Source: a virus. From it: DNA of 64,000 bases. This document shows, piece after piece, positions 3,001 through 54,406 of the stretch; the first letter of the stretch is position 1; the number at the start of each line of letters is the position of its first letter. The notes below the pieces were generated by a model. That model had not been told where the DNA came from. It saw only the letters and a program-made list of their open reading frames with translations, and ran no database searches. Position numbers and translations under genes: made by a program. The stretch is taken from the IMG/VR virus record IMGVR_UViG_3300006793_000013; one strand, written 5' to 3'.

Positions 3001-6000
3001 AGTTGGAGGAGTTGATCAGTCAGAAAGAATTGAAATTAGATTAGATACTGACAAGTTTAAATTAAATCCTCAGCCTGTATTAGTTGAAGCGTCTGCAGAA
3101 GATAAAGTTGATAGGTATTATAGAATTGATTCGACTAATTTTGAGTTTGGTCCAAGCCCGTTTACAACAGACATCAACCCAACTAGTTATGATTCTAAGC
3201 CTGTATTAACAGCAGGATATGTATCAGTAGGTCAAACAGACTTTACAGTTACAAACAGAGATGAAATATTAAATCTTGCAATTGCTTCAGTACAAGATAA
3301 TAATCATATATGGGTTACATTTGATGGACCTTCATGGACCGTTCTTAGAGCAAACACAGTATTCGATTTAAAAATTACAAACTTAGAAAGTAATGATGAT
3401 AACGAAGTGATCTTTACTTTTGAAAAAGCACACTTGTTAAAAGTTGATGATGTATTTGGTATCAAAACAATAGCAGGACTAAATCAGTTTTGGAAAGTAA
3501 AAGCAGCAACAACTAATACAGTTACAGTACAGCATACAGAAAAGTATGATGCAGATCAAGGATTCGAACCTAGCACAGGCGCTTATCCAATGTTACTAAC
3601 TGAAGCACGGTTTAGTTCTTACGACACTGTTGACCCAGAGAAGGTAGCACTACTAACTGACGGATCAAAACTATTTGTAGACTCTAATGTAAACTCACAC
3701 TGGGAAGTTGTTGAAAAGAAAAAACAGTTTACAGGTAATAAAATTGTTGACTTTGGTATTACTGATCCAACAAGTGTTGGTAAGAAAACAGTTTACAGTG
3801 ATACACTTAAACAGGTTATAGTTGGCATACCTGATGCAGCAAGAGTAGGAATTTATATTCAAGGTGCAACAGGCCTATCGTCTAAGCAATTGCTTGAACC
3901 ACCGTCATGGTTAACAACAGATGTTACAGGATCATTTGGTCTTGAATTAGCACTTAGCCCAGATAGCCAGTGGTTGATGGTTGGTGCTCCAACAGCAAGT
4001 GGAATCCCTAGCAGATATCAAGGTGCATTTGATGTAAATGCAAACTACTTAATTAATGACATTGTTTTATTTGCAGGTAGACTTTATAAAGCAACTGATA
4101 ATATTAACGGTGACGGCAGCACAATTGATGTGTACAGCAATGAATGGGTTGAAGTACAGAAGATTGATGCAGAAAGCGATGGATCAAACACAGGTGGTTT
4201 TGAAACAGGTGTAATATTCATTTACAAGTACCAGTCACAACAGTGGAACTTATACGACATACAAGTAAGTCCTAGAACTTATGACAATGAAAGATTTGGT
4301 GAAAAGATTGCAGTTAGCCAAGCAACATCAACAGGCCCTTATTACATGTCAGTATCAGCACCTGGTTCACAAGATGCAAAAGGTCGTGTATATCTTTACA
4401 CGTATGATACAACAGATGGTTGGCGCTTAGACTATAATAAAAATTATAGAGGCATTTATGCTGCTGATGATTCTACTTTTTATCCTAAGGACTCAATAGT
4501 ATTTTCAAATGGAGATATGTGGAAAGCATTAGTTGATAATGTTGCGGACGGAAGTTCATTAACAATTTACTCAAACGATTGGGTTAAGATGGACGAAGTA
4601 ACAACAGGTGCTTCACTTCCGATGTCAATAGCAACTAACGATGATGGTTCAACACTTGATGCAGGAATACTTGATGACGAACAACTTGTTGAGTTAGTTA
4701 AAGTAGATGATCGTTTTGGTACTTCTTTAGCAATGAACTATGACGGTACAGTACTTGCAGTAGGCGCACCAAACAGTGACGGACAATACTTTAATAACTT
4801 TAAAGGTCAGTGGAGACCTAACTACGAATATATGCAAGGCGATACAGTTAAGTATCAAGGCAGTTATCATCAATTACAAAATTTAGGACCAAGTGCAGTA
4901 GGTGCAGATAGTACAATTAGAAGTTATAACGAAGCACCAGATGCTGGCGAGCCTTGGGTAAACGTAGGCGATAGCACAGACGTTGCTTCAGGTAAAGTTT
5001 ACATATACAAAAAGAATGCAGCTGGTGTTTATAGATTACTACAGCAAATAAATGCAGACTCTCTTCCATACCTAAGTGATCTTGATCCAAGTGAAGCAAT
5101 AAGCTCAGGTGACAAGTTTGGTTATGCTATTGGATTAGACTATTCAGGTAACACATTAGTTGTTACAAGTCCTTTAGCAGATAAAAACTTCCAGAATCAA
5201 GGTAGTGCTTATGTGTTTAAGTTTGATAGTGATTCAACAGAATTTGCTTATAGACTAAAACAAAAATTAACAAGTTACTCAGATTATCCAAATGAAATGT
5301 TTGGTCAAGATATTTCAATCTCAAGCGGTACTGAAATAATTGCAATTGGTGCAACTAATTCTCCGTTTACATTACAGACAAGATTTGATGGATCACAAAC
5401 ATCATACGACAGTAACAGAACTACGTTTAGAGATTATGACGGATTTGCTGGAGCAGTTTATGTGTTTGAGAAAAAAGGTAAGTCTGAGAGATACTTCCTA
5501 TCAGAGAAAATTGACGAAACACTTTCTTTAAACGAGTCTTTTGGTTACAGTTTATATGCTACAAGAAACGCTATTGTAGTTGGATCGCCTAACTATATTT
5601 CTCCTGCACCTCACGGAGTTGATATTGCATTTGAAGGAGACAAAACAGGTACAGCTAGATTGTTTGAAAAAACTGAAGGTCAAAATGCACTAAACGTTAT
5701 TGGCTCACAACCACAAACAGTTGACATTGATAAGTTTAAACGTATTTCACTTTATGATACTGAAGATGATATAAAAATTCTTGACATAGAAATTTTTGAT
5801 CCTGCTAAAATGAAACTGTTAGCACAAGCAGAAAGAGAACTTACATATAAAGTTCCATACGATCCTGCAATTTATACAACAGGAACAGCAGAAGGTGCTG
5901 TTGTTGATGATTCTATTTGTTGGAAAACTAAAAACGTAGGTAAACTATGGTGGGATATTTCAACAGCTAAATGGTTTGACTATGAGCAAGGCGAAGTTTC

Positions 6001-9000
6001 ATATAGAGTAGGTGCATGGGGAGCATTGGCTCCTGGAGCATCAATTGATGTTTATGAATGGGTACAGTCTAAATTACTTCCTTCGGAGTGGGCAGTAGTT
6101 GCAGATACTAATGAAGGTTTACCACTAGGCATATCTGGGCAACCATTGTATGCAGATGATAGTGCTTACAGTATAAAAGCAGAATTTAATCCTAATACAG
6201 GAGAACAAACAGAAGTTTATTATTACTATTGGGTAAGAAATAAAGTTACTGTTCCTGAAGGTAATACTGATAGATCTATTTCAGCAGCAGATGTGTTTAA
6301 TTTGATTAGTGATCCTTCTGCACTAGGACAAACATATGCAGCATTTATTGACAAAGACAAATTTTTATTATTCAATTACAAAGCATCAGTAGCAGAAAGC
6401 TCTGCTGTACTAAATGTTGAATACTTTACACAAGAAGAAAATCAAAATCAAGTACACAACGAGTATCAACTTCTAACTGAAGGTGTTGCAGATAGTTTAC
6501 CAACTACATCATTAGAAAATAAATGGATTGATAGTTTAATTGGGTACGATAGACAAGGTAATAGAATACCTGATCCTAACTTGCCAGCTAAACAACGATA
6601 TGGTATAAGTTACAGACCAAGACAAAGTATGTTTGTTGATAGAAAGTCTATCTTAAGAACTTTAATTACAAATGTTAACGCAATCATGCACAAAGAAGCA
6701 TTTGCTGATTCATTAAACTTTACAACGTTAAATTCAGTAGACAGTATTCCAAGTTCTTTATTAAACCTTTATGACACAACAGTTGATAGCTATATTGAAT
6801 TACTTGAAGTAGGTACATCTAGAATTAAACAATGTAACTTACGTGCAAATATTATTGATAATGAAGTCAACTCTATTGATATTTTAGATGCAGGGTTTGG
6901 ATATAAGATACCTCCAACTATTGAATTTGAAGGTGACGGAACAGGTGCAGAAGCAGTTACTACAATTGACAATCAAGGTAGAGTTAACAGTGTAACAATT
7001 ACTAATAAAGGTAAACTATACACATACATTTCTACTAAACCAAGACAGTTTAGTGTGCTTGTTAATAACGATTCTACTGCAAATAATTTCTGGAGCATTT
7101 ATGCTTGGGACGATGTAAGAAAATCATGGTACAGAAGTAGATCACAAGCGTACAACACACCGTTATATTGGTCATATGCTGACTGGTGGGACAATGACTT
7201 TGGTCCTACTTCAAGAATAGTAAAAGAAATAGTTAGTGTATACGAAGAACCAACTATAAATGTTGAAATTGGAGACTTGATTAGAATCAAAGAATACGGT
7301 TCAGGTGGCTGGGCAGTGTTTAAGAAAACTACTGATGTTAGTACCGAGTCTATGAACAACTACGAGATGATTGGTAGGTACCAAGGAACTATTCAATTCT
7401 CATCAGACTTATATGATACAGCAACAAGTGGTGTTGGATATGACAACGTAGACTCATTTGATATTGACTTTTATGATAAAGAAGTTTCAAATGAACTTAG
7501 ATTTATTTTACAAGCATTGAAAGAAGATGTTTTAACTGGAAATTATGCAGTTGAGTGGAACAACTTATTCTTTACATCAATTAGATATGTGTTTAAAGAA
7601 CAAACTTATGTAGATTGGGCGTTTAAATCTAGTTTCTTAAATGCAACACACAATGTTGGCACACTAAAACAAAAAACTAATTACAAAAATGACAGTCTTG
7701 AAAGTTACTTAGACTATATTAACGAAGTAAAACCTTACAGTACAACAGTAAGAGAATATATTAGTAAGTATGACACTATAGATAATACAAATTCTGCTAT
7801 TTCAGACTTTGATTTACCTCCTTACTATTCAGAAGCACAAGGAAAAATTGTTCCTGTTGAAAGTACTGACGATATATTAGCAACATATCCTTATAAATTC
7901 TGGAACGATAACAAAGGTTACCAGATTATTGAAATAAGTGTTGCTGGTAAAGGCGCAGATTACACAGAAGCACCTAAAGTATTAATTACTGGTGGAGGCG
8001 GAAGCGGTGCTAAAGCAACTGCATATGTTTCAAACGGTAAAGTTACTGGAATCAAATTAACAGAACACGGTTCAGGATACACATCAACACCAACTGTTTC
8101 CCTTGTAGGTGGTAATGGTACTTCGCCATCAGTTGCAAGAGCAGTTGCAGTGTTAGGTAATGGTAAAACACGTTCTATAAATGTTAATATGAAGTTCGAT
8201 AGAATTTCTAAAACAGGAATTTATAGTAACTTTACACAAACTGAGTCGTTTACTGCTACAGGTTCAACATCAGTGTTTAATTTAACTTATCCACCAACTA
8301 GAGATAAGTCAAATATTTCAATTATTAAAGACGGTCAAGTAGTTCTTAATAATGAATACGATATTGCTTTGTTTACATTAGAAACAGATGTGTATAAACA
8401 AATTAGAGGTAAGATTACTTTTAAAATTCCACCAGCAAAAGACGAAGTTATTAATATAACGTATGCAAAGAATGATGAAATCTTAGATAGTGTAAGCAGA
8501 ATTGAAAAATATTACAATCCATCATCAGGAATGGTAGGTAAAGAACTGAATCAGCTAATGACAGGTATTGACTTTGGTGGTGTTCAAGTACAAGGTACCA
8601 CATTTGATGTTACAGGTGGTTGGGACGCATTACCTTGGTTTACTGATAGTTGGGATAGTGTTGAGTCAGCAGCAGATTATTACTATGTTGCAGACGGAAG
8701 CACAATTAATGTAACACTTCCTTATACTCCTGTAGATGGACAAGTTCTTAATATCTACTTAAAACGTGCAGGCACAGTAGTACCTGACGATATTTTAAAT
8801 TTACAAGTTGAAGAAGGGGTTGAAGAACCTCCAACACATAGAATTGACGATCCTAATTACACTGATAACTGGGATAGCTCAGTTTCAACGAATCCACATG
8901 CACAGATGCCAACATTTATTGGTGACGGTAGCACAAACATTGTTGAAGTTGGTGCCTATGTATCAACACAGCCCGGTGATATTTTAATTTTCCGTCCTGC

Positions 9001-11203
9001 AGAGAGTGATGGTGCTGTAACTATTAATGATAACAACTTATTAGATACAAAGTTATCAGGTGGAACATTGTCAGCAATGGAAGGTGCTTATGCAACAGCA
9101 ACAGGATTAAATGCAGAAGACATTTCAATAGACGGTGGTGAATATACTAGCCCAGATCAAGTTCCTGCAACAGAAGAAAACATTCCTGGACAGGTTTTAG
9201 ATAGTTTAAGTATTAAAGTATTCCACTCAAACAAAGATGCAGCGGGTGCAACAGTTAAATCTAATGTTAGAATCGGTGACGGATCAACATTAGTATATCC
9301 AATAGGACAAAAAATTATTGAAAACAAATCAGTAATTGTTTATATTGACGGAATAAAATCTGCACCAGCAACTTATACTGTTAACATTACAAATAGTACA
9401 ATTGAATTTGCAAGTGTTCCAGCAGAAAATTCTAAAATTGAAATAGTTTCAATAGGATTAGGCGGTGTGTCAATACTTGATTACCAAGAGTTTATTGCAG
9501 ACGGTGACACAACATTATTCTTAACTAACGCAAACTACATTGATACTTCAAATATTTTTGTATCAGTCAACGGTGTACAATCTGATACAGGATTTATTGA
9601 CAGCACAGACTTATTACCTGACACGCCAAACAGAACACTTGTACAGTTTGGTACAAAGCCTGATAGATTAGCAGTGATTAGAATTGTTGCATTTGGCGCA
9701 GCAGCAGACGTTGATAGTTCATTGCAATCTTTAATTAGAGTTAACCAACAAGAATTTACATATGATGGTAGCACTAAGAGTTATGACCTAGATACATTTG
9801 TTCAGTTATCTAGAGAAAGTGCATTAGCATCAACTATTGTTGAAGTAAACAACAAAAAACTAAAAAGTGTTGACACAGTTTACAATGTTTACGATGGAGT
9901 AACTAAAAAATATGTACTAGGTGTTGATCCTATTGCATCAGCAGGTTCTATTGTTCCAAACAACATTAAAGTTTATATTAACAACGAGCTAAAAACATTT
10001 ATTACAGACTATGTTTATAATGGTACAACTAAAGAGCTTGAGGTTACTGCGGAAAATTTGACGGTCGGAGATGTTATTAAAATTGAAAATAACCTAAATG
10101 CAGAGTACTCTGTGGTAGGTAACAACATTGTTATTAATGATTCGACAGCATTAACACTAGGTGATACAATTGATGTAACTTGGTTTAGTGAATATCCTTC
10201 AATGGAAATTGTTAGTGATCAGTATACAGGTGGTAAAGCATTTTATCCTATTGCATTTAAACCATTGGGTGTAAGTTATGTATGGGTTTACAGAAACAAA
10301 ACTAAACTTATACAAGATGTTGATTATCGCTTAGATGTTGAACGAGGTGCTGTATATATTGAAGGTTCTAATAAAGATACAGATAGTTTTGAAATTGTAG
10401 CGTTTGGGTCTAATGTATTTGCATTACCAAGTGCATATCAAGTTAGTAAAGATATGTTAAACATCAATCGTTACACTAGATATGCAATTACTGATAATTT
10501 AGTATTGGCAAAAGAATTAACTTACTATGATGAAAGTATTACACTTGCAGATGCTTCTACATTGTTTGACCCTGTTGCAGGCAAAAATATACCAGGTATT
10601 ATTGAAATAGATGGTGAGAAAATTGAGTACATGAACAAGAATGGTAATGTACTAAGCAACTTGAGAAGAGGTACACAGGGTACAGCAATTAAAACACTGA
10701 ATCCTGTAGGATCATATGTAGTTGATTTGAGTACAGACCAAACAATTCCATATAAAGATACCCAATCAAGAACAGATTTTGTTAGTGATGGTAGCAGTCA
10801 ACTCATTGGACCACTACCTTTTGTTCCTAAGCTAAGTACTGTTAGTGATTGGTATGAAGGAACAATTCCAGCAATTTATGGAAGATGTGACTCAATTGAA
10901 GTATTTGTTGGCGGTAAAAGACTACGCAAAACATATATTGATCAATACAACGAAACTAAAGGTTCAACTAGCCCAGCAGGCGATGAGAAGGTTGAAGCTG
11001 AATTTAGTGTTGACGGGTCGTCAGCATATATTAGACTAACAAATGTACCTCCGGCAGGTACACGAATTAGTATTATAAAACAACAAGGACAAGTATGGTA
11101 CGATAGAGGCCAAAATACTGCTACATCAGGCGTTACGCTGCTTAAAAACAGCACTCCAATTAGTCAGTTCATTGCTGCCAATACATCGAAGTTACCTGAA
11201 TAA
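2..11203 (+). CDS. Giant virion structural (baseplate-type) protein, 5'-truncated by window edge, >3730 aa
   Basis: Frame is open from position 2 (ATT GTT AAA TCT...), so the ATG at 173 is internal. Contains beta-propeller/FG-GAP-like repeats (RFGTSLAMNYDGTVLAVGAP), W/Y-rich CBM-like repeats (YDYKLGDIVSY, YEYMQGDTVKY), GGGGSGAKATA..VSNGKV motifs and C-terminal LRRGTQGT; lies upstream of tail-fibre genes. Confidence 0.7.
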   Translation: MVKSLRYAKSAYTIFKQNIIKKATEVEFNENTSDFLDSIIEIITKTKTIDSPFADSDMIGAGAFTRTDYVVDDPGIKTFTLTEDFDLETLSRRAVYVYLNDVQLIVNKDYTVNGALGFITITGTLVEGDRIEIREYVSTAFSHVPPTPTSLGLYPKYEPTKYLDDTYRVPKDIIQGHDGSKTTAYGDYRDDLLLEFEKRVFNNIKQEYDAKIFDVQKALGGYYGNSTFVKEELDSVINQEFLSWVQNTNLGYTTNDYFVETEPFTYTYSSMTDPTGKENLPGYWRGVYKYFYDTDRPHTHPWEMLGFTIKPTWWETEYGAAPYTNGNLVLWEDIAAGKIAQGDRAGIYPRYARTTILNHIPCDCDGNLVDPLTSGLAGNFQLVNNRGPFKLGDDSPVENAWKTSSEYPFAITTALALLKPFDYLVLNFDRAVTKRNIIDQLVNVTSETFLTPTDLKFPIAGKTQVAGLAIYIASYIKSVGGAVADAQKNIDCINVRLTSRVSGFVDKQQQKYLLDSKNPSSASASVFIPPENYDIIFNVSSPIASVTYSGVIFEKTTQGWVVNGYDDINPYFNTFEAYPQQADPVISVAGTSEPFTEWDQEKTFNNGGIVEYRGTFYRATQTFTSGETFDKSNLVQLPDLPVENAVVAQQRRNFNSFKVKKVSYGTEFNSIQSVVDFLLGYQAHLKSQGFDFANYDGTNQVVQDFTTAAKEFMYWTVHNWAVGSVLSMSPGAASMEINLAVGVADNLLDSFYDYNVLKADGSALDPKFINVSRSFQKIQVNTTNTTEGIYLLKLNYVLKEHVVVFDDKTVFNDTIFDKATGYRQERIKAQGFRTTDWDGDYTSPGFLFDNVSFDTWIPYYDYKLGDIVSYRAYKYTARFNHTSDEEFNDANWTQLDSTPEKQLIPNFDYRINQMEDYFDVSSEGLGKSQRDLARHTVGYQSREYLENLSEDPTTQFKLYQGFIREKGTPNAITKLFTKLGDNTSNAAVDLNEEWGFKLGQVGGVDQSERIEIRLDTDKFKLNPQPVLVEASAEDKVDRYYRIDSTNFEFGPSPFTTDINPTSYDSKPVLTAGYVSVGQTDFTVTNRDEILNLAIASVQDNNHIWVTFDGPSWTVLRANTVFDLKITNLESNDDNEVIFTFEKAHLLKVDDVFGIKTIAGLNQFWKVKAATTNTVTVQHTEKYDADQGFEPSTGAYPMLLTEARFSSYDTVDPEKVALLTDGSKLFVDSNVNSHWEVVEKKKQFTGNKIVDFGITDPTSVGKKTVYSDTLKQVIVGIPDAARVGIYIQGATGLSSKQLLEPPSWLTTDVTGSFGLELALSPDSQWLMVGAPTASGIPSRYQGAFDVNANYLINDIVLFAGRLYKATDNINGDGSTIDVYSNEWVEVQKIDAESDGSNTGGFETGVIFIYKYQSQQWNLYDIQVSPRTYDNERFGEKIAVSQATSTGPYYMSVSAPGSQDAKGRVYLYTYDTTDGWRLDYNKNYRGIYAADDSTFYPKDSIVFSNGDMWKALVDNVADGSSLTIYSNDWVKMDEVTTGASLPMSIATNDDGSTLDAGILDDEQLVELVKVDDRFGTSLAMNYDGTVLAVGAPNSDGQYFNNFKGQWRPNYEYMQGDTVKYQGSYHQLQNLGPSAVGADSTIRSYNEAPDAGEPWVNVGDSTDVASGKVYIYKKNAAGVYRLLQQINADSLPYLSDLDPSEAISSGDKFGYAIGLDYSGNTLVVTSPLADKNFQNQGSAYVFKFDSDSTEFAYRLKQKLTSYSDYPNEMFGQDISISSGTEIIAIGATNSPFTLQTRFDGSQTSYDSNRTTFRDYDGFAGAVYVFEKKGKSERYFLSEKIDETLSLNESFGYSLYATRNAIVVGSPNYISPAPHGVDIAFEGDKTGTARLFEKTEGQNALNVIGSQPQTVDIDKFKRISLYDTEDDIKILDIEIFDPAKMKLLAQAERELTYKVPYDPAIYTTGTAEGAVVDDSICWKTKNVGKLWWDISTAKWFDYEQGEVSYRVGAWGALAPGASIDVYEWVQSKLLPSEWAVVADTNEGLPLGISGQPLYADDSAYSIKAEFNPNTGEQTEVYYYYWVRNKVTVPEGNTDRSISAADVFNLISDPSALGQTYAAFIDKDKFLLFNYKASVAESSAVLNVEYFTQEENQNQVHNEYQLLTEGVADSLPTTSLENKWIDSLIGYDRQGNRIPDPNLPAKQRYGISYRPRQSMFVDRKSILRTLITNVNAIMHKEAFADSLNFTTLNSVDSIPSSLLNLYDTTVDSYIELLEVGTSRIKQCNLRANIIDNEVNSIDILDAGFGYKIPPTIEFEGDGTGAEAVTTIDNQGRVNSVTITNKGKLYTYISTKPRQFSVLVNNDSTANNFWSIYAWDDVRKSWYRSRSQAYNTPLYWSYADWWDNDFGPTSRIVKEIVSVYEEPTINVEIGDLIRIKEYGSGGWAVFKKTTDVSTESMNNYEMIGRYQGTIQFSSDLYDTATSGVGYDNVDSFDIDFYDKEVSNELRFILQALKEDVLTGNYAVEWNNLFFTSIRYVFKEQTYVDWAFKSSFLNATHNVGTLKQKTNYKNDSLESYLDYINEVKPYSTTVREYISKYDTIDNTNSAISDFDLPPYYSEAQGKIVPVESTDDILATYPYKFWNDNKGYQIIEISVAGKGADYTEAPKVLITGGGGSGAKATAYVSNGKVTGIKLTEHGSGYTSTPTVSLVGGNGTSPSVARAVAVLGNGKTRSINVNMKFDRISKTGIYSNFTQTESFTATGSTSVFNLTYPPTRDKSNISIIKDGQVVLNNEYDIALFTLETDVYKQIRGKITFKIPPAKDEVINITYAKNDEILDSVSRIEKYYNPSSGMVGKELNQLMTGIDFGGVQVQGTTFDVTGGWDALPWFTDSWDSVESAADYYYVADGSTINVTLPYTPVDGQVLNIYLKRAGTVVPDDILNLQVEEGVEEPPTHRIDDPNYTDNWDSSVSTNPHAQMPTFIGDGSTNIVEVGAYVSTQPGDILIFRPAESDGAVTINDNNLLDTKLSGGTLSAMEGAYATATGLNAEDISIDGGEYTSPDQVPATEENIPGQVLDSLSIKVFHSNKDAAGATVKSNVRIGDGSTLVYPIGQKIIENKSVIVYIDGIKSAPATYTVNITNSTIEFASVPAENSKIEIVSIGLGGVSILDYQEFIADGDTTLFLTNANYIDTSNIFVSVNGVQSDTGFIDSTDLLPDTPNRTLVQFGTKPDRLAVIRIVAFGAAADVDSSLQSLIRVNQQEFTYDGSTKSYDLDTFVQLSRESALASTIVEVNNKKLKSVDTVYNVYDGVTKKYVLGVDPIASAGSIVPNNIKVYINNELKTFITDYVYNGTTKELEVTAENLTVGDVIKIENNLNAEYSVVGNNIVINDSTALTLGDTIDVTWFSEYPSMEIVSDQYTGGKAFYPIAFKPLGVSYVWVYRNKTKLIQDVDYRLDVERGAVYIEGSNKDTDSFEIVAFGSNVFALPSAYQVSKDMLNINRYTRYAITDNLVLAKELTYYDESITLADASTLFDPVAGKNIPGIIEIDGEKIEYMNKNGNVLSNLRRGTQGTAIKTLNPVGSYVVDLSTDQTIPYKDTQSRTDFVSDGSSQLIGPLPFVPKLSTVSDWYEGTIPAIYGRCDSIEVFVGGKRLRKTYIDQYNETKGSTSPAGDEKVEAEFSVDGSSAYIRLTNVPPAGTRISIIKQQGQVWYDRGQNTATSGVTLLKNSTPISQFIAANTSKLPE

Positions 11204-26496: not shown

Positions 26497-28129
26497 TATC
26501 TTTTTTGTCAGTGACGGGAACGTTAATGAAATAGCATGGAGTAATTTCAAGGCAAGATTCCCACACGCACAAAAAATAGAAAATTGTGAAAGTTATGAAA
26601 CACTAAACAAAAAGTCTCTTACAAAAAACTTTTGGGTAGTATGGGACAATTTGTATCTAACACAAGATTTCGATTTAACATATAGAGTTACAGAATGGGA
26701 CGATCAGTACATTCATGTATTTAAAAATGGTGAACATTTTGATGGTGTATGTTTATTTCCTAAAAACTTAAATGTAGCAAACAAAGAATGGAAATACAGA
26801 TTTTTTACAGACAAGAAAGAGATTGATATAGTAGCAAGTACACCTAAGCCGTATGATATTGTTAAATTAGATAGTTATGAAGGACTTGTTACAGCACAAG
26901 AAATTGCACAATCAGAATTTATATTGTGTATACCTGATGACGTAATTCCAAACGATATACCTCAATACCAAGTTCCTTTTTGGGATAAAGATGTTGTACA
27001 TGTTTTTAAAAATAATAAAACGTATGATGGTATCTTTATTTGTCATAAAGATAATAAAATTGCTAAACGTGAATTTGATTATAGATTTTTTACAAATAAA
27101 AAAGAAATCAATATAGTAGCAAGTGAACCTAAGAAGTGGGAAATATTTCAATTAGCAACTTTTGAAGATTATCAAAACGCACAAGAAAAAGCAACAGGTG
27201 ATATGTTCTGGGGTGTGTATCCTGATCTAAATATTATTGATAGTTTTAAGTTTGATTATTACATTCCTAAGTATGACAGTTATCATAGAAAACTTACACA
27301 CTGTTTTCAAAACAATGGCCAGTTCTATGACGGAGTTACATTGTTTTCAAAAGAACGTCCTGTAACAGAACGTGAATTTAAATCAAGATTCTTTACTAAC
27401 AAAAAAGATGTAAAAGAAAATAGTAGTAAGCAAACACTTTATGATATTGCGTTTATAAGTTATAAAGAAAAAAATGCAGATAAGCATTTTAAAGAATTAC
27501 AAGATATTATAAGGGTACAAGATCCTAGTATAAAGTTACGTTGGATACGTGATGTAAAAGGTATTCATCAAGCACATATGGAAGCAGCAAGATTATGTGA
27601 AACAAATATGTTTTGGGTAGTTGATGGCGATGCTCAATTAATTAAACACTTTAAATTTAATCATATTGTTCCGTTTTGGGATCAAGACACTGTGCATGTA
27701 TGGAGAAGTAAAAACGCAGTAAATGATTTAGAATATGGTTACGGTGGTGTAAAATTATTACCAAGACAAGCAGTTATGGATATTACAGACTTTACTACAG
27801 ACATGACAACAAGCCTATCTACAAAGTTCAGAGCAATGAACGAAGTAAGTAACATTAGTGTGTTTGATACTGATGAATACAGTACATGGAAAAGTGCATT
27901 CAGAGAATGTGTTAAATTGGCTAGTAGATCTATTAACAGACAGGATAATATGGAAACTGAGAAACGTTTAGATATCTGGTGTAAAGAAGCAAAAGGACCT
28001 TTTGCAGAGTACGCACTAACAGGAGCAAAAGCTGGTAGAGAATACGGAGTTGCAAATAGTAACAAGCCAGAAAATCTACGTAAGATAAATGACTTTGATT
28101 GGTTAAAGGAAAAGTTTAATGCAGGATAA
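26489..28129 (+). CDS. Glycosyltransferase-like protein with tandem N-terminal repeats
   Basis: C-terminal domain paralogous to upstream gene (VKGIHQAHMEAA, FWVVDGDA, YGYGGVKL, WKSAFRECVKL); three ~95-101 aa repeats ending RFFTxKK. Confidence 0.6.
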   Translation: MYDIFFVSDGNVNEIAWSNFKARFPHAQKIENCESYETLNKKSLTKNFWVVWDNLYLTQDFDLTYRVTEWDDQYIHVFKNGEHFDGVCLFPKNLNVANKEWKYRFFTDKKEIDIVASTPKPYDIVKLDSYEGLVTAQEIAQSEFILCIPDDVIPNDIPQYQVPFWDKDVVHVFKNNKTYDGIFICHKDNKIAKREFDYRFFTNKKEINIVASEPKKWEIFQLATFEDYQNAQEKATGDMFWGVYPDLNIIDSFKFDYYIPKYDSYHRKLTHCFQNNGQFYDGVTLFSKERPVTEREFKSRFFTNKKDVKENSSKQTLYDIAFISYKEKNADKHFKELQDIIRVQDPSIKLRWIRDVKGIHQAHMEAARLCETNMFWVVDGDAQLIKHFKFNHIVPFWDQDTVHVWRSKNAVNDLEYGYGGVKLLPRQAVMDITDFTTDMTTSLSTKFRAMNEVSNISVFDTDEYSTWKSAFRECVKLASRSINRQDNMETEKRLDIWCKEAKGPFAEYALTGAKAGREYGVANSNKPENLRKINDFDWLKEKFNAG

Positions 28130-29486
28130 AGATAGGATAGAAAAATTTATACCTATTATGGACGAGCTAAGTCCTACATTCTGTATGGCCAAATGGCATC
28201 ATACAACGTTGTATTTAGGTACAGGAGAAACACATAGTTGTTATCACCCTGCACCACACAAAATACCTTTGCATGAAATAGAAGCAGATCCTAGTGCGTT
28301 ACATAATACACAGCAGAAAAAAGCAGAACGCCAAGAAATGATGGACGGCAAAAAGCCTAGCGGATGTCAATACTGTTGGAATGTTGAATGTATGGGTAAA
28401 GACTATATAAGCGATCGTAAAGAACGTAACGCAAGTATATACACGCCTGAAAGATTTAATGCAATTAAACAAGAACCAATGGCGAATGTAAATCCACAGT
28501 ATGTTGAAGTTTCGTTTGGTAATGAATGTAATTTTAAGTGCGGTTATTGTCACCCTAAACATTCTAGCAGTTACTACAAAGAAATTGAAAAAGAAGGTCC
28601 GTACACTATGGTTAAGAATCATAGGAATGATATTGACTGGTTTAAAATACACAAAGATGAAGAAACAAATCCGTATGTTAAAGCATGGTGGAAGTGGTGG
28701 CCTGAATTGCGTAAGACACTTACGATTTTACGTATTACAGGAGGCGAACCCTTATTACAGCAAAGCACATGGAGAGTATTTGACGAGCTTGAAAAGAATC
28801 CTTGTCCTAATTTAGAATTAAACATTAATACTAACTTAGGTGTTAAGCCTATTCTTATTGAACGGTTCACTGACAAAGTAAACAGTTTGGTTGAAAAAGG
28901 CTGTATCAAAGACTTTAAAATCTTTACTAGTATTGATACATGGGGACCACAAGCAGAGTATATTAGAACAGGCTTAGACTTAGAGCTATGGGAAAAGAAT
29001 CTAGACATGTACATGACTAGAACTAATATGCCTTTAACATTTATGGTTACATTTAATATTTTAACTGTAACTAACTTTAGCACATTATTGCAAAAGTTTT
29101 TAGACTGGCGTATAAAGTATAATAGTGATAATCAAACTAAGTGGCAGCGTATTAGATTTGATACTCCGTATTTAAAAGAGCCGCTACAATACGATATGAA
29201 CATCTTACCTAAAGATAAATTTATGCCGTACATGAAAAAGCATTTACAGTTTATTGTTGATAACATGGACGATCAAGATAGGCATAAATTTAGTGAACTA
29301 GAGTATGAAAAGTTTAGACGTGTAGTAGACTATATGGAAAGAACACAGTACGATGTTAACAGATTAACAGAAGGTCGAAAAGATTTTTATCAGTGGTTTA
29401 CTGAATACGACAAAAGAAGAAATGTTAACTTCACTAATACATTTCCAGACTTAAAGGACTTCTACTATGACTGCGAAAAGGTCTGA
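28119..29486 (+). CDS. Radical SAM protein with N-terminal SPASM/twitch-like domain
   Basis: GNECNFKCGYC (CX3CX2C), ITGGEPLL; N-terminal FCMAKW..HSCYH..GCQYCW. Confidence 0.85.
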   Translation: MQDKDRIEKFIPIMDELSPTFCMAKWHHTTLYLGTGETHSCYHPAPHKIPLHEIEADPSALHNTQQKKAERQEMMDGKKPSGCQYCWNVECMGKDYISDRKERNASIYTPERFNAIKQEPMANVNPQYVEVSFGNECNFKCGYCHPKHSSSYYKEIEKEGPYTMVKNHRNDIDWFKIHKDEETNPYVKAWWKWWPELRKTLTILRITGGEPLLQQSTWRVFDELEKNPCPNLELNINTNLGVKPILIERFTDKVNSLVEKGCIKDFKIFTSIDTWGPQAEYIRTGLDLELWEKNLDMYMTRTNMPLTFMVTFNILTVTNFSTLLQKFLDWRIKYNSDNQTKWQRIRFDTPYLKEPLQYDMNILPKDKFMPYMKKHLQFIVDNMDDQDRHKFSELEYEKFRRVVDYMERTQYDVNRLTEGRKDFYQWFTEYDKRRNVNFTNTFPDLKDFYYDCEKV

Positions 29487-30663
29487 TACATTTTGCATTT
29501 TACCTTGGTTGCACATGTATGTAAATCCAGACGGGTCAGTACTACCTTGTTGTGTTGGTGAATGGGACAAACCCTTAGGTAATGTAAGACAACACACAAT
29601 CAAAGAAATTTGGAATGATAAACCTTATAAGCAGATGCGTAAAAACATGCTTGAAGGAAAACGTTGTGTAGAATGCCAAGCATGTTATAACATAGAAGAT
29701 GGCGGCGCAGAAAGTTCAAGAATACATGCTAACAGCAATCCATACTTTGGTGATACCACAGGGCTAATAGCACATACAGAAGATGACGGAACATTGCCAG
29801 TAATGCATCTAAAACACTTTGATGTACGCTGGAGTAATATTTGTAACTTTAAATGCCGTAGTTGTAGTAGCACATATTCTAGCACATGGGCGCAAGAAGA
29901 TAATGCACAAGGTGAAAAGAAACCTATCTTCATTTTAGCAGATGGCAATGACAACGATAAGTTGTATAACCAATTCCTTCCACACTTTAAAGACATTGAA
30001 ACATTTTACTTTGCTGGTGGCGAACCTTTGCTTACAGATAAGCACTATGATATACTAGAACACCTTATTTCAATAGGTAAAACAAATGTGAAGTTAGAGT
30101 ATAATAGTAACTGTAGTGTGCTAAAATACAAGTCTAAGAGCGTCTTAGAGCTATGGAAACACTTTGATACTATACACATAGGTGCAAGTTTAGATCATTA
30201 TGGAAGCAGAGCAGAATATATTAGATCAGGAACAGATTGGAATTTAATTAAAAGTAATATACAAAAGATAAAGCAAGAATGTCCGCACATTAAAATGCAA
30301 AGCAATACAGTTGTTAGTGTTTTTAATTTATACACACTAACAGACTTTTTTGATTATGTGTTAAATGAGGGCTTCTTTGATATCGAAGATTATTTCCCAC
30401 AGATGTATAATATACAATATCCAGAATATTACACAGCATCAGTATTAGATGATGCATTTAAAACAGAAATTATTGAAAAGATACAAAGCAAAAAATATAA
30501 CAAGCATATTGACGATATGCTAAAAGGTGTTGTAAGTTATATAAACAATTCTAAGTTTAATGAAAAAACAAGACAGCAGTTTAAAAATCGTACACACCAC
30601 TATGACATAATTAGAAATGAAAACTTTGAGGAAACATTTCCTGAACTGAAAGGATTGATATAA
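29467..30663 (+). CDS. Radical SAM protein with N-terminal SPASM/twitch-like domain, paralog
   Basis: SNICNFKCRSC, FAGGEPLL; N-terminal FCILPW..DGSVLPCC..LGNV..IKEIWN..CVECQACY. Confidence 0.85.
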   Translation: MTAKRSDTFCILPWLHMYVNPDGSVLPCCVGEWDKPLGNVRQHTIKEIWNDKPYKQMRKNMLEGKRCVECQACYNIEDGGAESSRIHANSNPYFGDTTGLIAHTEDDGTLPVMHLKHFDVRWSNICNFKCRSCSSTYSSTWAQEDNAQGEKKPIFILADGNDNDKLYNQFLPHFKDIETFYFAGGEPLLTDKHYDILEHLISIGKTNVKLEYNSNCSVLKYKSKSVLELWKHFDTIHIGASLDHYGSRAEYIRSGTDWNLIKSNIQKIKQECPHIKMQSNTVVSVFNLYTLTDFFDYVLNEGFFDIEDYFPQMYNIQYPEYYTASVLDDAFKTEIIEKIQSKKYNKHIDDMLKGVVSYINNSKFNEKTRQQFKNRTHHYDIIRNENFEETFPELKGLI

Positions 30664-49194: not shown

Positions 49195-51864
49195 TTAATC
49201 AAAATCAAACAATTTGTTAAAGTTGTTATCACTTCTTGTAGAGCTGATATCCCACTCTAACACACCAATAAGGTTACCTAGCTTTTCATCAATTACTGAA
49301 TTTTCCATTTCAGCATCGTTGAAAGGCAGTTTTTTAAACCATTCTGGCAAACGTAATTCATCTACAGGATACGCAACACTAGTGAATCCCATAGGGTTAT
49401 CTTTAACTTTACAAACAATTACTTTCGCACCATCTGTAATAGTTATGGAATATTTGTCATCTTCCATACGCTTTAAGGTATTCCAATTAATACTTGCACG
49501 AACATGTCCAGGCATATTTGCTTTACCTTGTTTCTTTTCTTTGTTGCCGTACTCAGTAATCTTGTTTGCACGTTTCGGACTACCTTTCTCCCAACCAGGT
49601 CTTGTTTTAAATTCAGTTCTAAATTCTGTAATGTAATCTAGTACGTCTTGTTGTTCTTTACCTGCTAGTACCATTTCTAATACATTACTCAAAAAGTCTT
49701 GAATAACAACAGGAGTATCAGAACGTTTCAAGTCTAAACCCATTGCTTTGATCTTACCTGGCTTTCCTTCAGTATCTACACGCTTACCTTCTACGTCATA
49801 GTACAGAACTGCATATCTTTTCTTTGTAATAAACAGACCTTTACTTGCAACAATCTCTCTTGCTGCCGCAATAACATCTGATCTGCTTTTAGGACAATGG
49901 AAAGTTTCAGCCATAAACTTAGGAAACGTAGTATTTGCTTCATCGCAGATTTGATCATACAATGCCATAACACTATCTTTATCCCAAGGAATGTTTCCTT
50001 TATCAATCTCTTCTTTTAACGTACTGTATGCACTAAAGTAAGATGAATCAGTATCACCATACACAATTGACTTACCTGTATGGTTGTACTCGCCTGTAAT
50101 AATCTCATTAACCTTTGCACTCATATGCTTAACAATCTGTCTACCTGTAAGTGTAGTTGACTGTCCAATACGGTTATCAAAGAATCTACAACCTGGATTA
50201 AGAATAGCACCATACAAACTGTTAAGTAGAATCTTTTTAACAAGTTGTCTTTTTGCCCAGTACTCTTCTTCGATAGGATTCTTTGCTTTGATTGCATCAC
50301 GCATCTTTGCCTGCATTTCTTTACGTTCTTTATACCAACGTTTTAGCAGTCCAGGAATAACACCTTCTTTTTCATATGTAAAGATGGTACCATTAGCACT
50401 TAGCATCCAAGGCTGATTGCTTTCAAAGATTAAATCATATACTTGTGCCGCACTAATTGTATCGCTTTTGTCGCTGTCTTCCCAGTCGATAGTAATCTGC
50501 CTACCTACTTCACGTTCCATAACAGAGTCAAACTCAACAGAACCAAATTGTCCTTCCCAAGCATTTGCAAAACTTTTACCTTTTGCCATTTCGCCTTCAA
50601 TACGTGCTTTTGTTCCGTCTTGTCTTAGTTGTCCTACAATTGTTTCAGGACCCATATTCAAAGCTCTAATAACAGATGGATACAGTGAATTCAAGTCAAC
50701 ACTACCAATCCATTCATGAATACCTTTCTTAGGATATGCAACATAAGCACCTGCCGCAGGCTCACTACCTGGTTCACGTCTTACTCTGTTAGGAACAATA
50801 AACCCACGTCTGTGTGCTTCGTTAATAATACCTTGTTCTGTAACAGCAACAGCACCCATAGTAGTTTGAATAAGAACTGTATTCTCATGTGCAACAGTAT
50901 TAGCAAGATCAATAAATTTAAGTTTCTTATCTAGTTTGTCAAGTAGTGCAGTATCTTGAATGTTATATTCAATAAATGTTCTAAAGTCGTTGTTGTAAAG
51001 TGAATCAAGAGAACCTTCATAAACTGTTTTTGTTTCGCCAACTTCTAGTTCGCCAATAGCATCAAGTCGATATGTATGACGTTCTTCGTAGTTATATTTT
51101 CTATAAAGTTCTAGTGAGTCAACATGCACTCTACCAATTAAATCATATGTAACAGATGTTTTACCAAACTTTTCATACTCACGTTTTTTAGGATACTGAT
51201 TCCAAAGACATAATCTTTTTGTATCTTCTTTGCTTAACGTTTTTGTAATTCTATTAACTGTGTACGGAATATCAAATCCTTCGCTGTTCCAGCCACTTAG
51301 TACATCAGCATCTTGTATAAGATCTAAAAATGCATCTAGCATTTCGCTTTCTTTTTCAAACAGCACAACATTGTCAATGCCTTCAATAGTTTTCTTTGCT
51401 TCTTCCATTGAAAGTGTCTTAGGCGGAATAGCAAGACATACCATTGTTTCCATCCACTGCATGTATACAGCAATTGAAGTAATAGGCATAAAAGCATCTT
51501 CAGGAGATGCATAACCTCGCTCAGGATCAAAGTCAACCTCAATATCAAAAAAAGCAACGTTTAGTTTAGGTGCGTCTTGATTGAGATAGTTGTCCTCAAG
51601 CATTCTATAAATTGGATTGATGTCGCTCTCATAAAGTTTTTTGTTGCTGTGAATAGCAAGTTCTTTACGAAGTTCTTTGATGTTTTTACAAGTTACCCTT
51701 GATAATGGTTTGCCATAGATGGATTTATATTTTCCTCTAGGATCCTCGTAATAAAAAATATGTCTGGGATTGTATTCTCGATAATGACGTTTGCCTTTAT
51801 CGTCACGTTCAACAACGTTGATGGTGTCTTGCCCTCTATCATAGAAAGCGTCTACGTAACTCAT
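49195..51864 (-). CDS. polB: Family B DNA polymerase (T4 gp43-like)
   Basis: Exo motifs FDIEVD, GWNSEGFDIPY, YNIQD; polymerase motifs SVDLNSLYPS, KILLNSLYG, YGDTDS; no intein. Confidence 0.97.
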   Translation of the reverse strand: MSYVDAFYDRGQDTINVVERDDKGKRHYREYNPRHIFYYEDPRGKYKSIYGKPLSRVTCKNIKELRKELAIHSNKKLYESDINPIYRMLEDNYLNQDAPKLNVAFFDIEVDFDPERGYASPEDAFMPITSIAVYMQWMETMVCLAIPPKTLSMEEAKKTIEGIDNVVLFEKESEMLDAFLDLIQDADVLSGWNSEGFDIPYTVNRITKTLSKEDTKRLCLWNQYPKKREYEKFGKTSVTYDLIGRVHVDSLELYRKYNYEERHTYRLDAIGELEVGETKTVYEGSLDSLYNNDFRTFIEYNIQDTALLDKLDKKLKFIDLANTVAHENTVLIQTTMGAVAVTEQGIINEAHRRGFIVPNRVRREPGSEPAAGAYVAYPKKGIHEWIGSVDLNSLYPSVIRALNMGPETIVGQLRQDGTKARIEGEMAKGKSFANAWEGQFGSVEFDSVMEREVGRQITIDWEDSDKSDTISAAQVYDLIFESNQPWMLSANGTIFTYEKEGVIPGLLKRWYKERKEMQAKMRDAIKAKNPIEEEYWAKRQLVKKILLNSLYGAILNPGCRFFDNRIGQSTTLTGRQIVKHMSAKVNEIITGEYNHTGKSIVYGDTDSSYFSAYSTLKEEIDKGNIPWDKDSVMALYDQICDEANTTFPKFMAETFHCPKSRSDVIAAAREIVASKGLFITKKRYAVLYYDVEGKRVDTEGKPGKIKAMGLDLKRSDTPVVIQDFLSNVLEMVLAGKEQQDVLDYITEFRTEFKTRPGWEKGSPKRANKITEYGNKEKKQGKANMPGHVRASINWNTLKRMEDDKYSITITDGAKVIVCKVKDNPMGFTSVAYPVDELRLPEWFKKLPFNDAEMENSVIDEKLGNLIGVLEWDISSTRSDNNFNKLFDFD

Positions 51865-52501: not shown

Positions 52502-52780
52502 TTATTCACTCTCAGTATTACCGGACGGTAAATTATTTGTGATTCCAAGAATGCCTTCGATGTCTTCCCACTCTTCTAAGTGTTTAGCCCAATCGTCTTT
52601 GTGAGCAATTTTAATTGCTTTATTAATTACTGATGGTTTGATCTGTAGTTCTTCTGCTACTGCTTTTACAGTATCCTTAAGACCTTCATTAAGATCCTCT
52701 ACTTCACGTAGAACATTTGAACCTTCTTTGATCAATCTCTCTAGTTTAGCCTTTTCTTCTGGCCCGTACATTTTTGACAT
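52502..52780 (-). CDS. dsbA: T4 DsbA-like double-stranded DNA-binding protein
   Basis: L..LIKEGS......NE.LKD......EL......NK.....HKD pattern matches T4 DsbA (not the disulfide oxidoreductase). Confidence 0.7.
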   Translation of the reverse strand: MSKMYGPEEKAKLERLIKEGSNVLREVEDLNEGLKDTVKAVAEELQIKPSVINKAIKIAHKDDWAKHLEEWEDIEGILGITNNLPSGNTESE

Positions 52781-52805: not shown

Positions 52806-52834
52806 ATTATATAGTCATAAAAAAAGCCAGTCAA
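52806..52834 (-). promoter_or_regulatory. Sigma70-type promoter TTGACT-N17-TATAAT
   Basis: -35 at 52829-34, -10 at 52806-11. Confidence 0.8.
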
Positions 52835-52850
52835 GTTAATAACTGGCTTT
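52819..52850 (-). terminator. Rho-independent terminator ending the late block
   Basis: Minus strand AAAGCCAGT-N10-ACTGGCTTT with T7 run. Confidence 0.7.
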
Positions 52851-52877: not shown

Positions 52878-53003
52878 TTATTTTGCATTACAATCACAAT
52901 GCTTACAAGTCGGTTTGCAATTACAGTCTGCTGCTTTTACATCTGCACCGCAACACTCATCTGAGCAATAGCCTGCTTTTGCTTCACTCAGTCCTTTTTT
53001 TTT
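52878..53003 (-). other. Slippery A9/A_AAA_AAG site and -1-frame Cys-rich extension (38 aa, 8 Cys)
   Basis: TCA AAA AAA AAG GAC TGA; -1 frame reads GLSEAKAGYCSDECCGADVKAADCNCKPTCKHCDCNAK-stop. Confidence 0.6.
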
Positions 53004-54406
53004 GACTCAGTAAGTCCGTCTTCGTCCATAACGTCATACATTTCAAAACGTCCACCGTTACGCTCGTAAATCAATCCTGCAAAAATTTCTGCTTTGTTTG
53101 ACTCTTCAACTTTTGAAGTAGCAACTCTTTGAGCCCAGTTCCAAAGTGTTTCGTCAACTGGATCAATTTGCTGTTGTCCACCGCTTTCTTTTACAAGTTT
53201 TAGCATTTCAACAAATGACATGTTTGAAGGATCTTTAATAACTTCAACTGACTCGTTAACTGATTCTTTCATGTCTTTTTTGCAATCGTCGATCATGTCT
53301 TTTAATTTCTTTTGATCACAGTCTGGATGCATTTTGCAAATTTCTGCTTTAGACTTACCGTCTTTACACATTTTCTTTATGTGTGCTTTGGATGGCATCT
53401 TGCCGTCTTTTGCTTCGTTAACTGACTCGTTAGTTTTCTTTGCTTTAACTTCAGACATACATGCTTCGCACATCTCTTTTAATTTCTTTTGATCACAGTT
53501 TGGATACTTCTTGCAAATTTCATTTACTTTCATACCTTTGCTGCACATCATTAAAATGTCTTTCTTCTTAGGCATTTTTTCTGCTGTAATTACGTCTGCT
53601 GCTTCTTCAACTGACTCTTTCTTTTTGCCGAAGAATTTCTTTTGCTTATCTGACATTTCTTTTTTGCCTGACTTCTTGCCGCCTTTAGCATCTTTAGCAG
53701 CTTTCTTCATTGGCTCTTTCTTGTTACCGTCTTTGTCTAAGTCTAAAAAGTCTGGCTTACCTGCTTCAGCAACCATGTCATCGAACTTAGCTCTAAATGA
53801 CTCTTCTTTCTTTTTAGATGATTGGAACTCTTTAGATACTTTAACGTACTCATCGCCTTTCAAACCTTCAACATCTTTGTTGTGAGTTTTCTTAAGCCAT
53901 GCTGCAAATTCTGTATCTTTGTCTTTTTCGGATAGCTCTTCGTTTACAGTTTTTGCAACTTCGTCATCTGATTCTTTTACTTCTTTGGACTTAGAATCTT
54001 TTTCAACTTTAGCATCTTCTTTGGCTTTTTTCTTTTTAGGTTTAGCAGCACCGTGTTCTTCTAGTGTAACAATTTCCATGTCTGCTGCTGGAACTTTCTT
54101 TTCTACACCGTGTTTAAATTGTACATCGTACCACTCAACATTACCGTAGTCATCTGGAATAGCATGACTTTCGTAAACTGGTTTACCTTTACCATATAAT
54201 GGATGGTTAACAGTTGTTGCACAATCGTGGTCTTTTGAATGGCAAAGTTCTCTAACTTCGTCATCTGTATAACCTTCAAATACAACTGCTTGTGGTTTAT
54301 AATCAACGTTAGCGGCTCTTGCTATACTTTCTAGCGTACCGTCAAATGTGTTTTCGTTTTTTGCTTCCTCTCTTGGAAGTTTGTTTAATAAATTTCTAAA
54401 GTCCAT
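52988..54406 (-). CDS. Charged modular protein, probable capsid-internal/prohead-core type
   Basis: K/E-rich; repeated ESVNE/ESVE; two Cys-rich repeats KMP..K....MC..G....EICK..P.CDQKKLK.M; DLDKDGN motif. Confidence 0.6.
   Translation of the reverse strand: MDFRNLLNKLPREEAKNENTFDGTLESIARAANVDYKPQAVVFEGYTDDEVRELCHSKDHDCATTVNHPLYGKGKPVYESHAIPDDYGNVEWYDVQFKHGVEKKVPAADMEIVTLEEHGAAKPKKKKAKEDAKVEKDSKSKEVKESDDEVAKTVNEELSEKDKDTEFAAWLKKTHNKDVEGLKGDEYVKVSKEFQSSKKKEESFRAKFDDMVAEAGKPDFLDLDKDGNKKEPMKKAAKDAKGGKKSGKKEMSDKQKKFFGKKKESVEEAADVITAEKMPKKKDILMMCSKGMKVNEICKKYPNCDQKKLKEMCEACMSEVKAKKTNESVNEAKDGKMPSKAHIKKMCKDGKSKAEICKMHPDCDQKKLKDMIDDCKKDMKESVNESVEVIKDPSNMSFVEMLKLVKESGGQQQIDPVDETLWNWAQRVATSKVEESNKAEIFAGLIYERNGGRFEMYDVMDEDGLTESKKKD
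53260..53579 (-). repeat. Two ~45 aa Cys-rich coding repeats
   Basis: KMPKKKDILMMCSKG..EICKKYPNCDQKKLKEM and KMPSKAHIKKMCKDG..EICKMHPDCDQKKLKDM; boundaries approximate. Confidence 0.75.

Follow-up and report, generated by a model that had tools for sequence, protein, structure and literature searches.

Recoding fixes the ratio of two isoforms in phage T7 (10A and 10B) and in phage lambda (the G/GT tail-assembly chaperone). Thermus thermophilus makes the tau and gamma products of dnaX by transcriptional slippage on nine consecutive A/T, a length on which bacterial RNA polymerase slips with high efficiency and which is about that of the RNA:DNA hybrid (PMC5009743). Among -1 heptamers in E. coli, A_AAA_AAG is the one most prone to shifting, and both Lys codons are read there by a single tRNA-Lys (PMC5009743). 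Both elements coincide at the end of a gene, P0001, in the DNA analysed here: a stretch of 64,000 nucleotides (nt) from the IMG/VR virus record IMGVR_UViG_3300006793_000013, called the window below. P0001 ends on nine A followed by G (A9G), and a Cys-rich reading frame lies open behind the run in the -1 phase. This A9G is very probably a functional, programmed recoding site with two products. Two isoforms through a -1 tail at A9/A_AAA_AAG had been proposed in a first-pass annotation of the window; the proposal is strongly supported by the conserved run length, the conserved stop, a conserved, open and selected tail, and relatives in which the tail is fused. The same site is present in a second gene family.

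The 3' end of the P0001 open reading frame (ORF) reads TCA AAA AAA AAG GAC TGA on the minus strand, and the A9 run and in-frame A_AAA_AAG described in the first-pass annotation are borne out by the sequence. The features of the site are as follows.

52988-54406, minus strand: 0-frame ORF P0001, 472 residues; the product would be the short isoform, ending ...ESKKKD
52995-53003, minus strand: A9 run, the candidate recoding site; exactly A9 in 17/17 IMG/VR contigs
52994-53000, minus strand: A_AAA_AAG heptamer in 0-frame phase; all 20 unique junctions from both families have the G that follows the run
52988-52990, minus strand: 0-frame stop TGA, one codon past the slip site; TAA, TAG or TGA in relatives, 0-1 codons after
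52878-52994, minus strand: -1-frame extension of 38 codons with 8 Cys and 1 His, closed by TAA at 52878-52880 and without a start codon of its own
53007-53009, minus strand: TGA closing the -1 frame just upstream of A9

The -1 frame runs from 52994 down to 52881 (38 codons, 8 Cys) and contains no ATG, GTG or TTG. Its earlier description as shut upstream by the TGA, startless, holding 8 Cys in 38 residues and stopping before the terminator is accurate throughout. Most expression would halt one codon past A9 and give the 472-residue protein. A fraction would enter the -1 frame and give a predicted long isoform of 509 residues (471 + 38), in which ...SKKK is followed directly by GLSE... and the Cys-rich module. 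RNA polymerase may stutter on the nine-A tract and add one A to the mRNA, or the ribosome may slip -1 on A_AAA_AAG; the resulting protein would be identical.

The site is conserved. A search of IMG/VR with P0001 returns 17 junction contigs, all with exactly A9, a 0-frame stop one codon on and an open -1 tail. Exact-pattern scans of IMG/VR give the same 17 contigs for A9, drawn from 16 samples, and no contig for the A10 junction. IMG/VR matches to an A8 pattern in two places (L097 and L098) lie in genes unrelated to P0001 and were rejected. In the protein database, about 30 clusters on ~116 contigs (ENA, JGI, NCBI and Logan) terminate in ...ESKKKD, and A9 is present in ~116 of ~122 contigs of the P0001 family (family 1). 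A slippery heptamer of the form X_XXY_YYZ stands in phase, as A_AAA_AAG, in the window and in 20/20 unique junctions. The run of at least nine that is expected for slippage is found in 19 of these 20 (all A9), the remaining one having A8. The frame break is kept by homologues: A9, the adjacent stop and the open -1 tail recur at every related A9 locus examined, and the -1 tail is open in 18/18 loci.

The -1 frame is also under selection. The tails behind A9 form three sequence classes of 36-42 residues, with the Cys spacing conserved in each class. For the class of the window, the ratio of nonsynonymous (pN) to synonymous (pS) differences in the tail frame is 0.28-0.55; in the other two frames pN exceeds pS and 2-6 stops are present. 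In homologues at 43-60% identity, the Cys-rich tail is fused in frame right after the conserved ...GLTE and there is no A run (33-sequence alignment). A close clade (L012-14 and P0025) likewise has the tail fused in frame after ...LTE, again with no A run. The tail therefore belongs to this protein. Relative to the fused forms, the window clade has a 23-nt insert (eight codons minus one nucleotide) that encodes SKKK and GL(S/T)E. Some homologues (L019-22) have lost the tail and run directly into the terminator.

With 8 Cys in 38 residues (21% Cys), CC, CxC and CxxCxC spacing and one Tyr, the window tail has the composition that led the first-pass annotation to call it metallothionein-like. The label holds for composition; no metallothionein family is matched. 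A Pfam search with the tail and the fused homologues gives no match at E <= 1 and no metallothionein family, although such a search is weak for short Cys-rich peptides. Pfam and PHROGs searches with the tails and fused homologues yield neither a metallothionein nor a zinc-finger family, and a PDB sequence search with the window tail gives no match. The class C tail shows a weak, non-significant PDB sequence resemblance to a protein kinase C (PKC) C1 zinc finger (E = 0.16). It is also the best-predicted segment in AlphaFold2 (AF2), with a predicted local distance difference test score (pLDDT) of 65-81, and in this model looks like a small hairpin unit of the zinc-ribbon type. The tail may bind metal.

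The second family (family 2) was first met by chance in a loose variable-gap metagenome scan, which was no census and in which most of the matches listed are unrelated. The scan contains at least three contigs of this family, and the gene body matches phrog_14154, 'virion structural protein'. The gene ends in ...SKKKD and a stop on the same TCA-A9-GG cassette as P0001, and the -1 frame continues for about 100 residues. Loci of this family are found at the following positions.

L101:1579-2774, minus strand: family-2 locus
L103:3-475, plus strand: family-2 locus
L229-L236 and L240-L246, around position 1490: family-2 loci

A search of IMG/VR with the family-2 extension returns 19 loci, of which 16 have xxA AAA AAA AAG and, 0-1 codons further on, a stop. 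The -1 extensions measure 99-129 residues and represent 12 diverged junction types. Their context is variable: the run is preceded by TCA, GGA or CCA and followed by TAA, TGA, GCC TAA or GAT TAG. Synonymous sites are saturated in this family: among ten pairs compared, nine have a pS of 0.58-0.75 and the closest, L231/L232, has 0.43. Despite this saturation the ten-base A9G never varies, and pN/pS in the extension is 0.23-0.74. Other arrangements also occur. In L237-L239 (~1297-1734) the extension is a separate gene with its own Shine-Dalgarno sequence (SD) and ATG, directly after the stop of the body gene; in one contig it is fused in frame via A10.

Some cassettes of family 1 match those of family 2 at all of 23 nt (L007 and L101). 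A near-identical cassette in two unrelated genes suggests transfer by recombination. No third gene family with the cassette is found in a scan of all 1.4 Mb of fetched loci, and among cultured phages there is no isolate with the family-1 C-terminal domain or the family-2 extension.

Long A/T runs are scarce around these sites. The 64-kb window has one A/T run of at least nine, against 8.1 expected from dinucleotide shuffles, and this sole run is the recoding site; the counts for lengths 6, 7, 8 and 9 are 81, 14, 1 and 1. In a 262-kb relative (G001), the single A9G of the whole record is at its family-2 recoding site.

A number of observations weigh against a programmed two-product site, and other explanations of the A9 run compete with it. 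One is a sequencing or assembly error, in which case the genomes really have A10 and a plain 509-residue ORF. Errors are common in homopolymers and A10 does turn up in a few assemblies; against this, A9 is found in 17 contigs from 16 samples and again in ENA, JGI, NCBI and Logan assemblies, and A10 is absent from IMG/VR. The identical frame break occurs in a deeply diverged second gene family, and the conserved 0-frame stop 0-1 codons past the run would be meaningless in an A10 genome. An error of this kind, which the first-pass annotation had kept as its main alternative, is effectively refuted and hardly credible. Length variants do exist at the DNA level: A10 is seen in three contigs, each from a different sample, with a distinct tail variant and a fused frame; A7 is seen once, likewise fused; A8 is found in one protein cluster with two contigs. 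Adding one nucleotide to A9 restores the fused ORF, and natural A10 fusions are known from both families. These variants are rare but real beside A9, and switching of run length in the genome therefore occurs too. The locus may thus be a contingency locus, with tail-ON genomes (A10, A7) and tail-OFF genomes (A9, A8), the A9 genomes making no tail. Homopolymers are known mutational hot spots, and A10, A7 and A8 come from independent assemblies, A10 from three samples. Such a locus is nevertheless unlikely, as A9 accounts for ~116 of ~122 contigs and for 17/17 contigs in IMG/VR. A tail that is never made from OFF genomes should decay, yet it is open and under purifying selection at all A9 loci; the family-2 extension stays conserved through synonymous saturation, and the ON forms are too scarce to sustain selection on the tail.

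The tail may also be expressed alone (from an internal start or by termination-reinitiation), or be a decaying remnant of a fusion, and in either case not be joined to the 472-residue protein. Class A and B tails at other loci have an ATG shortly before the first Cys, sometimes with a weak SD-like GAAGG, and separate initiation of the tail is conceivable at these loci; it is not conceivable for the window, class C or family 2. The family-2 extension is a gene of its own in three phages, and the homologues L019-22 have lost the tail altogether. There is, however, no start codon near the beginning of the window tail, of class C tails or of any family-2 extension behind A9; the first -1-frame residues (GLSE and similar), which lie upstream of the ATG, are conserved; the invariant A9G is left unexplained; and a remnant is contradicted by the selection on the tail. 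Separate expression or decay is accordingly rated very improbable. Three further points count against a programmed site. A related phage (L250, G003:C1:7291-7300) has an ordinary A9 in frame (Pro-Lys-Lys-Lys-Asp) within one of its long ORFs and shows no frame break there, so the avoidance of long A/T runs is strong but not absolute. The family-2 locus L226:1576-1917 has TCT and A8G, below the usual slippage threshold, with A_AAA_AAG kept; the run, still one A short of the fused frame, comes from a single contig and may be genuine or an error of assembly. Finally, we infer the production of two isoforms, and their ratio, from sequence patterns. A programmed two-product site remains the preferred reading of A9G.

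The route by which the -1 frame would be entered is less clear-cut. The first-pass annotation had compared the site to a dnaX-type cassette with a stem close downstream, and the following hairpin is present in the window.

52961-52991, minus strand: hairpin downstream of A9, specific to the window; probably not a stimulator, being unconserved and no better than shuffles

The hairpin does fold and starts 2-3 nt past the run; it is absent from relatives and no more stable than shuffled sequence (-12.9 kcal/mol, z = -0.22). Single-sequence folds downstream of the run give z values from -1.35 to +1.31, and RNAalifold on nine diverse junctions finds no consensus pairs downstream of the run, which argues against a frameshift stimulator there. 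With a stem-loop that is neither conserved nor significant, the comparison to a dnaX-type cassette fails. The upstream SD expected at about 10 nt is represented only by AGG/GGA fragments 15-21 nt upstream, which lie on conserved Leu-Gly codons and keep no fixed ~10-nt spacing. Of the classical -1 stimulators, the stem is not conserved, and no SD is kept at ~10 nt upstream.

Several features would be better explained by polymerase slippage. The run is nine long where six suffice for frameshifting; a third-position A is kept in three families of preceding codon (TCA, GGA and CCA), which gives nine rather than eight; and the lack of conserved downstream structure and of an SD at a fixed distance points in the same direction. 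So does the fact that in-frame A_AAA_AAG is not avoided elsewhere, there being four further cases in window genes. Other features would fit ribosomal frameshifting better: the G after the run is invariant, with the residue there toggling between Gly and Val; the 0-frame stop is always 0-1 codons away; and one lineage appears to manage with A8G. Slippage is slightly favoured over frameshifting on these patterns, and both may contribute.

The protein that would carry the tail is modular, rich in Lys and Glu and largely disordered by prediction. Its N-terminal domain of 75 residues recurs in cyanophage ORFs, and a C-terminal domain is conserved. A DxDxDG-type motif is 88% identical over 25 residues to ORF92 of the cyanophage S-SCSM1, a virion protein detected by mass spectrometry; P0001 has no similarity to the S-SCSM1 nicotinamide mononucleotide adenylyltransferase (NMNAT) or to the neighbouring window ORF. 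In Pfam and PHROGs, P0001 matches DUF433-like repeats at residues 283-312 and otherwise unnamed PHROGs. At 53290-53560 on the minus strand (P0001 residues ~283-370), two repeats of ~30 residues have four to five Cys each and match DUF433 weakly (E = 1.3e-5); in a poor AF2 model they align to generic helix-turn-helix domains and to the [2Fe-2S] Bfd ferredoxin (Z 4.8). Homologues P0041-44 and P0101 (alignment A2, columns ~160-190) have a CxxCxGxG-type (DnaJ-like) zinc-finger module inserted mid-protein. Small Cys-rich modules thus appear to be shuffled within the P0001 family. The AF2 model of a naturally fused homologue, P0025, built from 33 sequences, has a mean pLDDT of 44.7 and is unusable except for the tail. 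A VIA-align comparison of the model with 48,161 chains gives a best Z of 5.2 to generic helix-turn-helix-like segments and is uninformative.

The first-pass annotation had termed P0001 a probable head protein. That label is an inference. A link to the virion is suggested by the 25-residue motif shared with S-SCSM1 and by a prohead protease of the T4 gp21 type that this virus record also encodes (Peptidase_S77, PF03420, 84.1 bits, E = 4.6e-25; G000:C1:95407-95829, outside the window); the gene itself lies in a late-type operon by dsbA and polB. No clear T4-like N-terminal capsid-targeting leader is identified in P0001. Prohead proteases of the gp21 type cut after Glu in hydrophobic-x-Glu motifs. 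Every tail or extension of both families has [LIV]-x-E within its first 3-7 residues (GLSE, GLTE, VTE, VNE, VLE and similar). In family 1 ...GLTE precedes the run, and in the window GLSE follows it, which places hydrophobic-x-Glu at the module borders. These motifs are consistent with a P0001 that is packaged in the head and a tail that is cut free by the phage's own gp21-type prohead protease: a fixed minority of a head-packaged carrier would be extended with a small module, which the protease would then release.

A broader reading is possible, although it is speculative and on balance doubtful. The 23-nt element (TCA, AAA AAA AAG, Gly/Val, hydrophobic-x-Glu) may be a portable recoding linker through which marine T4-like jumbo phages load sub-stoichiometric head cargo. 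Slippage would add a Cys-rich metal-binding peptide (family 1) or a domain of ~100 residues (family 2) to a head-targeted carrier. The prohead protease would then free the module inside the capsid, and the module itself may be fused, recoded or encoded as a separate gene.

P0001 is the final gene of a late-type operon and lies outside any recognisable head-gene block. Two regulatory features follow it.

52823-52850, minus strand: intrinsic operon terminator with an 11-bp stem and T run, 28 nt past the tail stop; conserved in relatives
52806-52834, minus strand: sigma-70-like promoter with 11/12 matches (TTGACT-17-TATAAT), which overlaps the terminator and reads into dsbA

The overlap of terminator and promoter ahead of dsbA (52806-52850, minus strand) is conserved across all related loci. 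The downstream neighbours of P0001 are a T4 DsbA-like regulator (dsbA, 52502-52780) and a family-B DNA polymerase (polB, 49195-51864). Upstream are small ORFs behind TAAATA boxes, a ParB-like protein and a cytidylyltransferase-like protein. By polymerase, the closest isolates are jumbo T4-like phages, Sinorhizobium phage Phosso (50%) and Agrobacterium phage Atu_ph07 (46%), and the window belongs to a virus record of 98 kb with an estimated completeness of 28%; the virus behind it is therefore a marine jumbo T4-like phage that has not been cultured. No tRNA genes are found in the window. A very large ORF (2-11203, plus strand; more than 3,700 residues and open at the window start) lies upstream of a tail-fibre-like gene block. 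Two adjoining radical-SAM-domain ORFs (28119-30663, plus strand; phrog_14086) are on the opposite strand, far from the Cys-rich tail.

Few programmed recoding sites are known, most of them from organisms in culture. The present one is kept by abundant marine phages that are uncultured, and it occurs in two gene families. Fused, recoded, split and lost states stand side by side and form a natural comparison set. They offer a clean system in which to study how protein ratios are set by slippage-prone tracts and to tell polymerase slippage apart from ribosomal frameshifting. In annotation, gene callers cut the proteins short and overlook the tails, which leaves more than 100 truncated database entries. 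If the idea of head cargo is true, small Cys-rich peptides would be packaged with phage DNA.

Full-text literature searches return no account of this site from either marine or T4-like phages. The tail itself resembles small fungal and bacterial metallothioneins and zinc-ribbon or treble-clef fingers in its 21% Cys and CC/CxC/CxxC spacing; it differs from them in having no significant family match. As in Buchnera and Blochmannia poly(A) frameshifts and in Shigella spa13 and mxiE, which are read through by slippage, a conserved frame break lies at an A/T run (PMC5009743). The endosymbiont cases are regarded as tolerated damage, whereas here the stop immediately behind the run, together with a functional short form, indicates a site designed for two products.

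The site shares with Thermus dnaX a run length of exactly nine, independence from RNA structure and two isoforms per gene that differ at the C-terminus (PMC5009743). The effect is the opposite: Thermus makes its long product in the 0 frame and a truncated one by slippage, whereas the putative slippage here would lengthen the protein. Neither the gene nor the organism nor the function is related. With E. coli dnaX and IS911/IS3-type sites it has in common the identical A_AAA_AAG in the correct phase and a -1 product. It differs from these in that the downstream stem-loop is not conserved, no upstream SD keeps a fixed spacing and the run is extended to nine A; the shift in E. coli dnaX shortens the protein, whereas here it would lengthen it. 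As in T7 gene 10A/10B and lambda G/GT, the slip site lies a few codons before the stop of a late, virion-related gene, and a minor, C-terminally extended isoform would result at a fixed ratio. The slip sequences (G_GGA_AAG in lambda) and the proteins differ, and the part appended here is either a tiny Cys-rich module or a domain of ~100 residues that other phages encode separately. Recoding to a C-terminally extended minor isoform is a known type of mechanism, of which this site appears to be a further instance.

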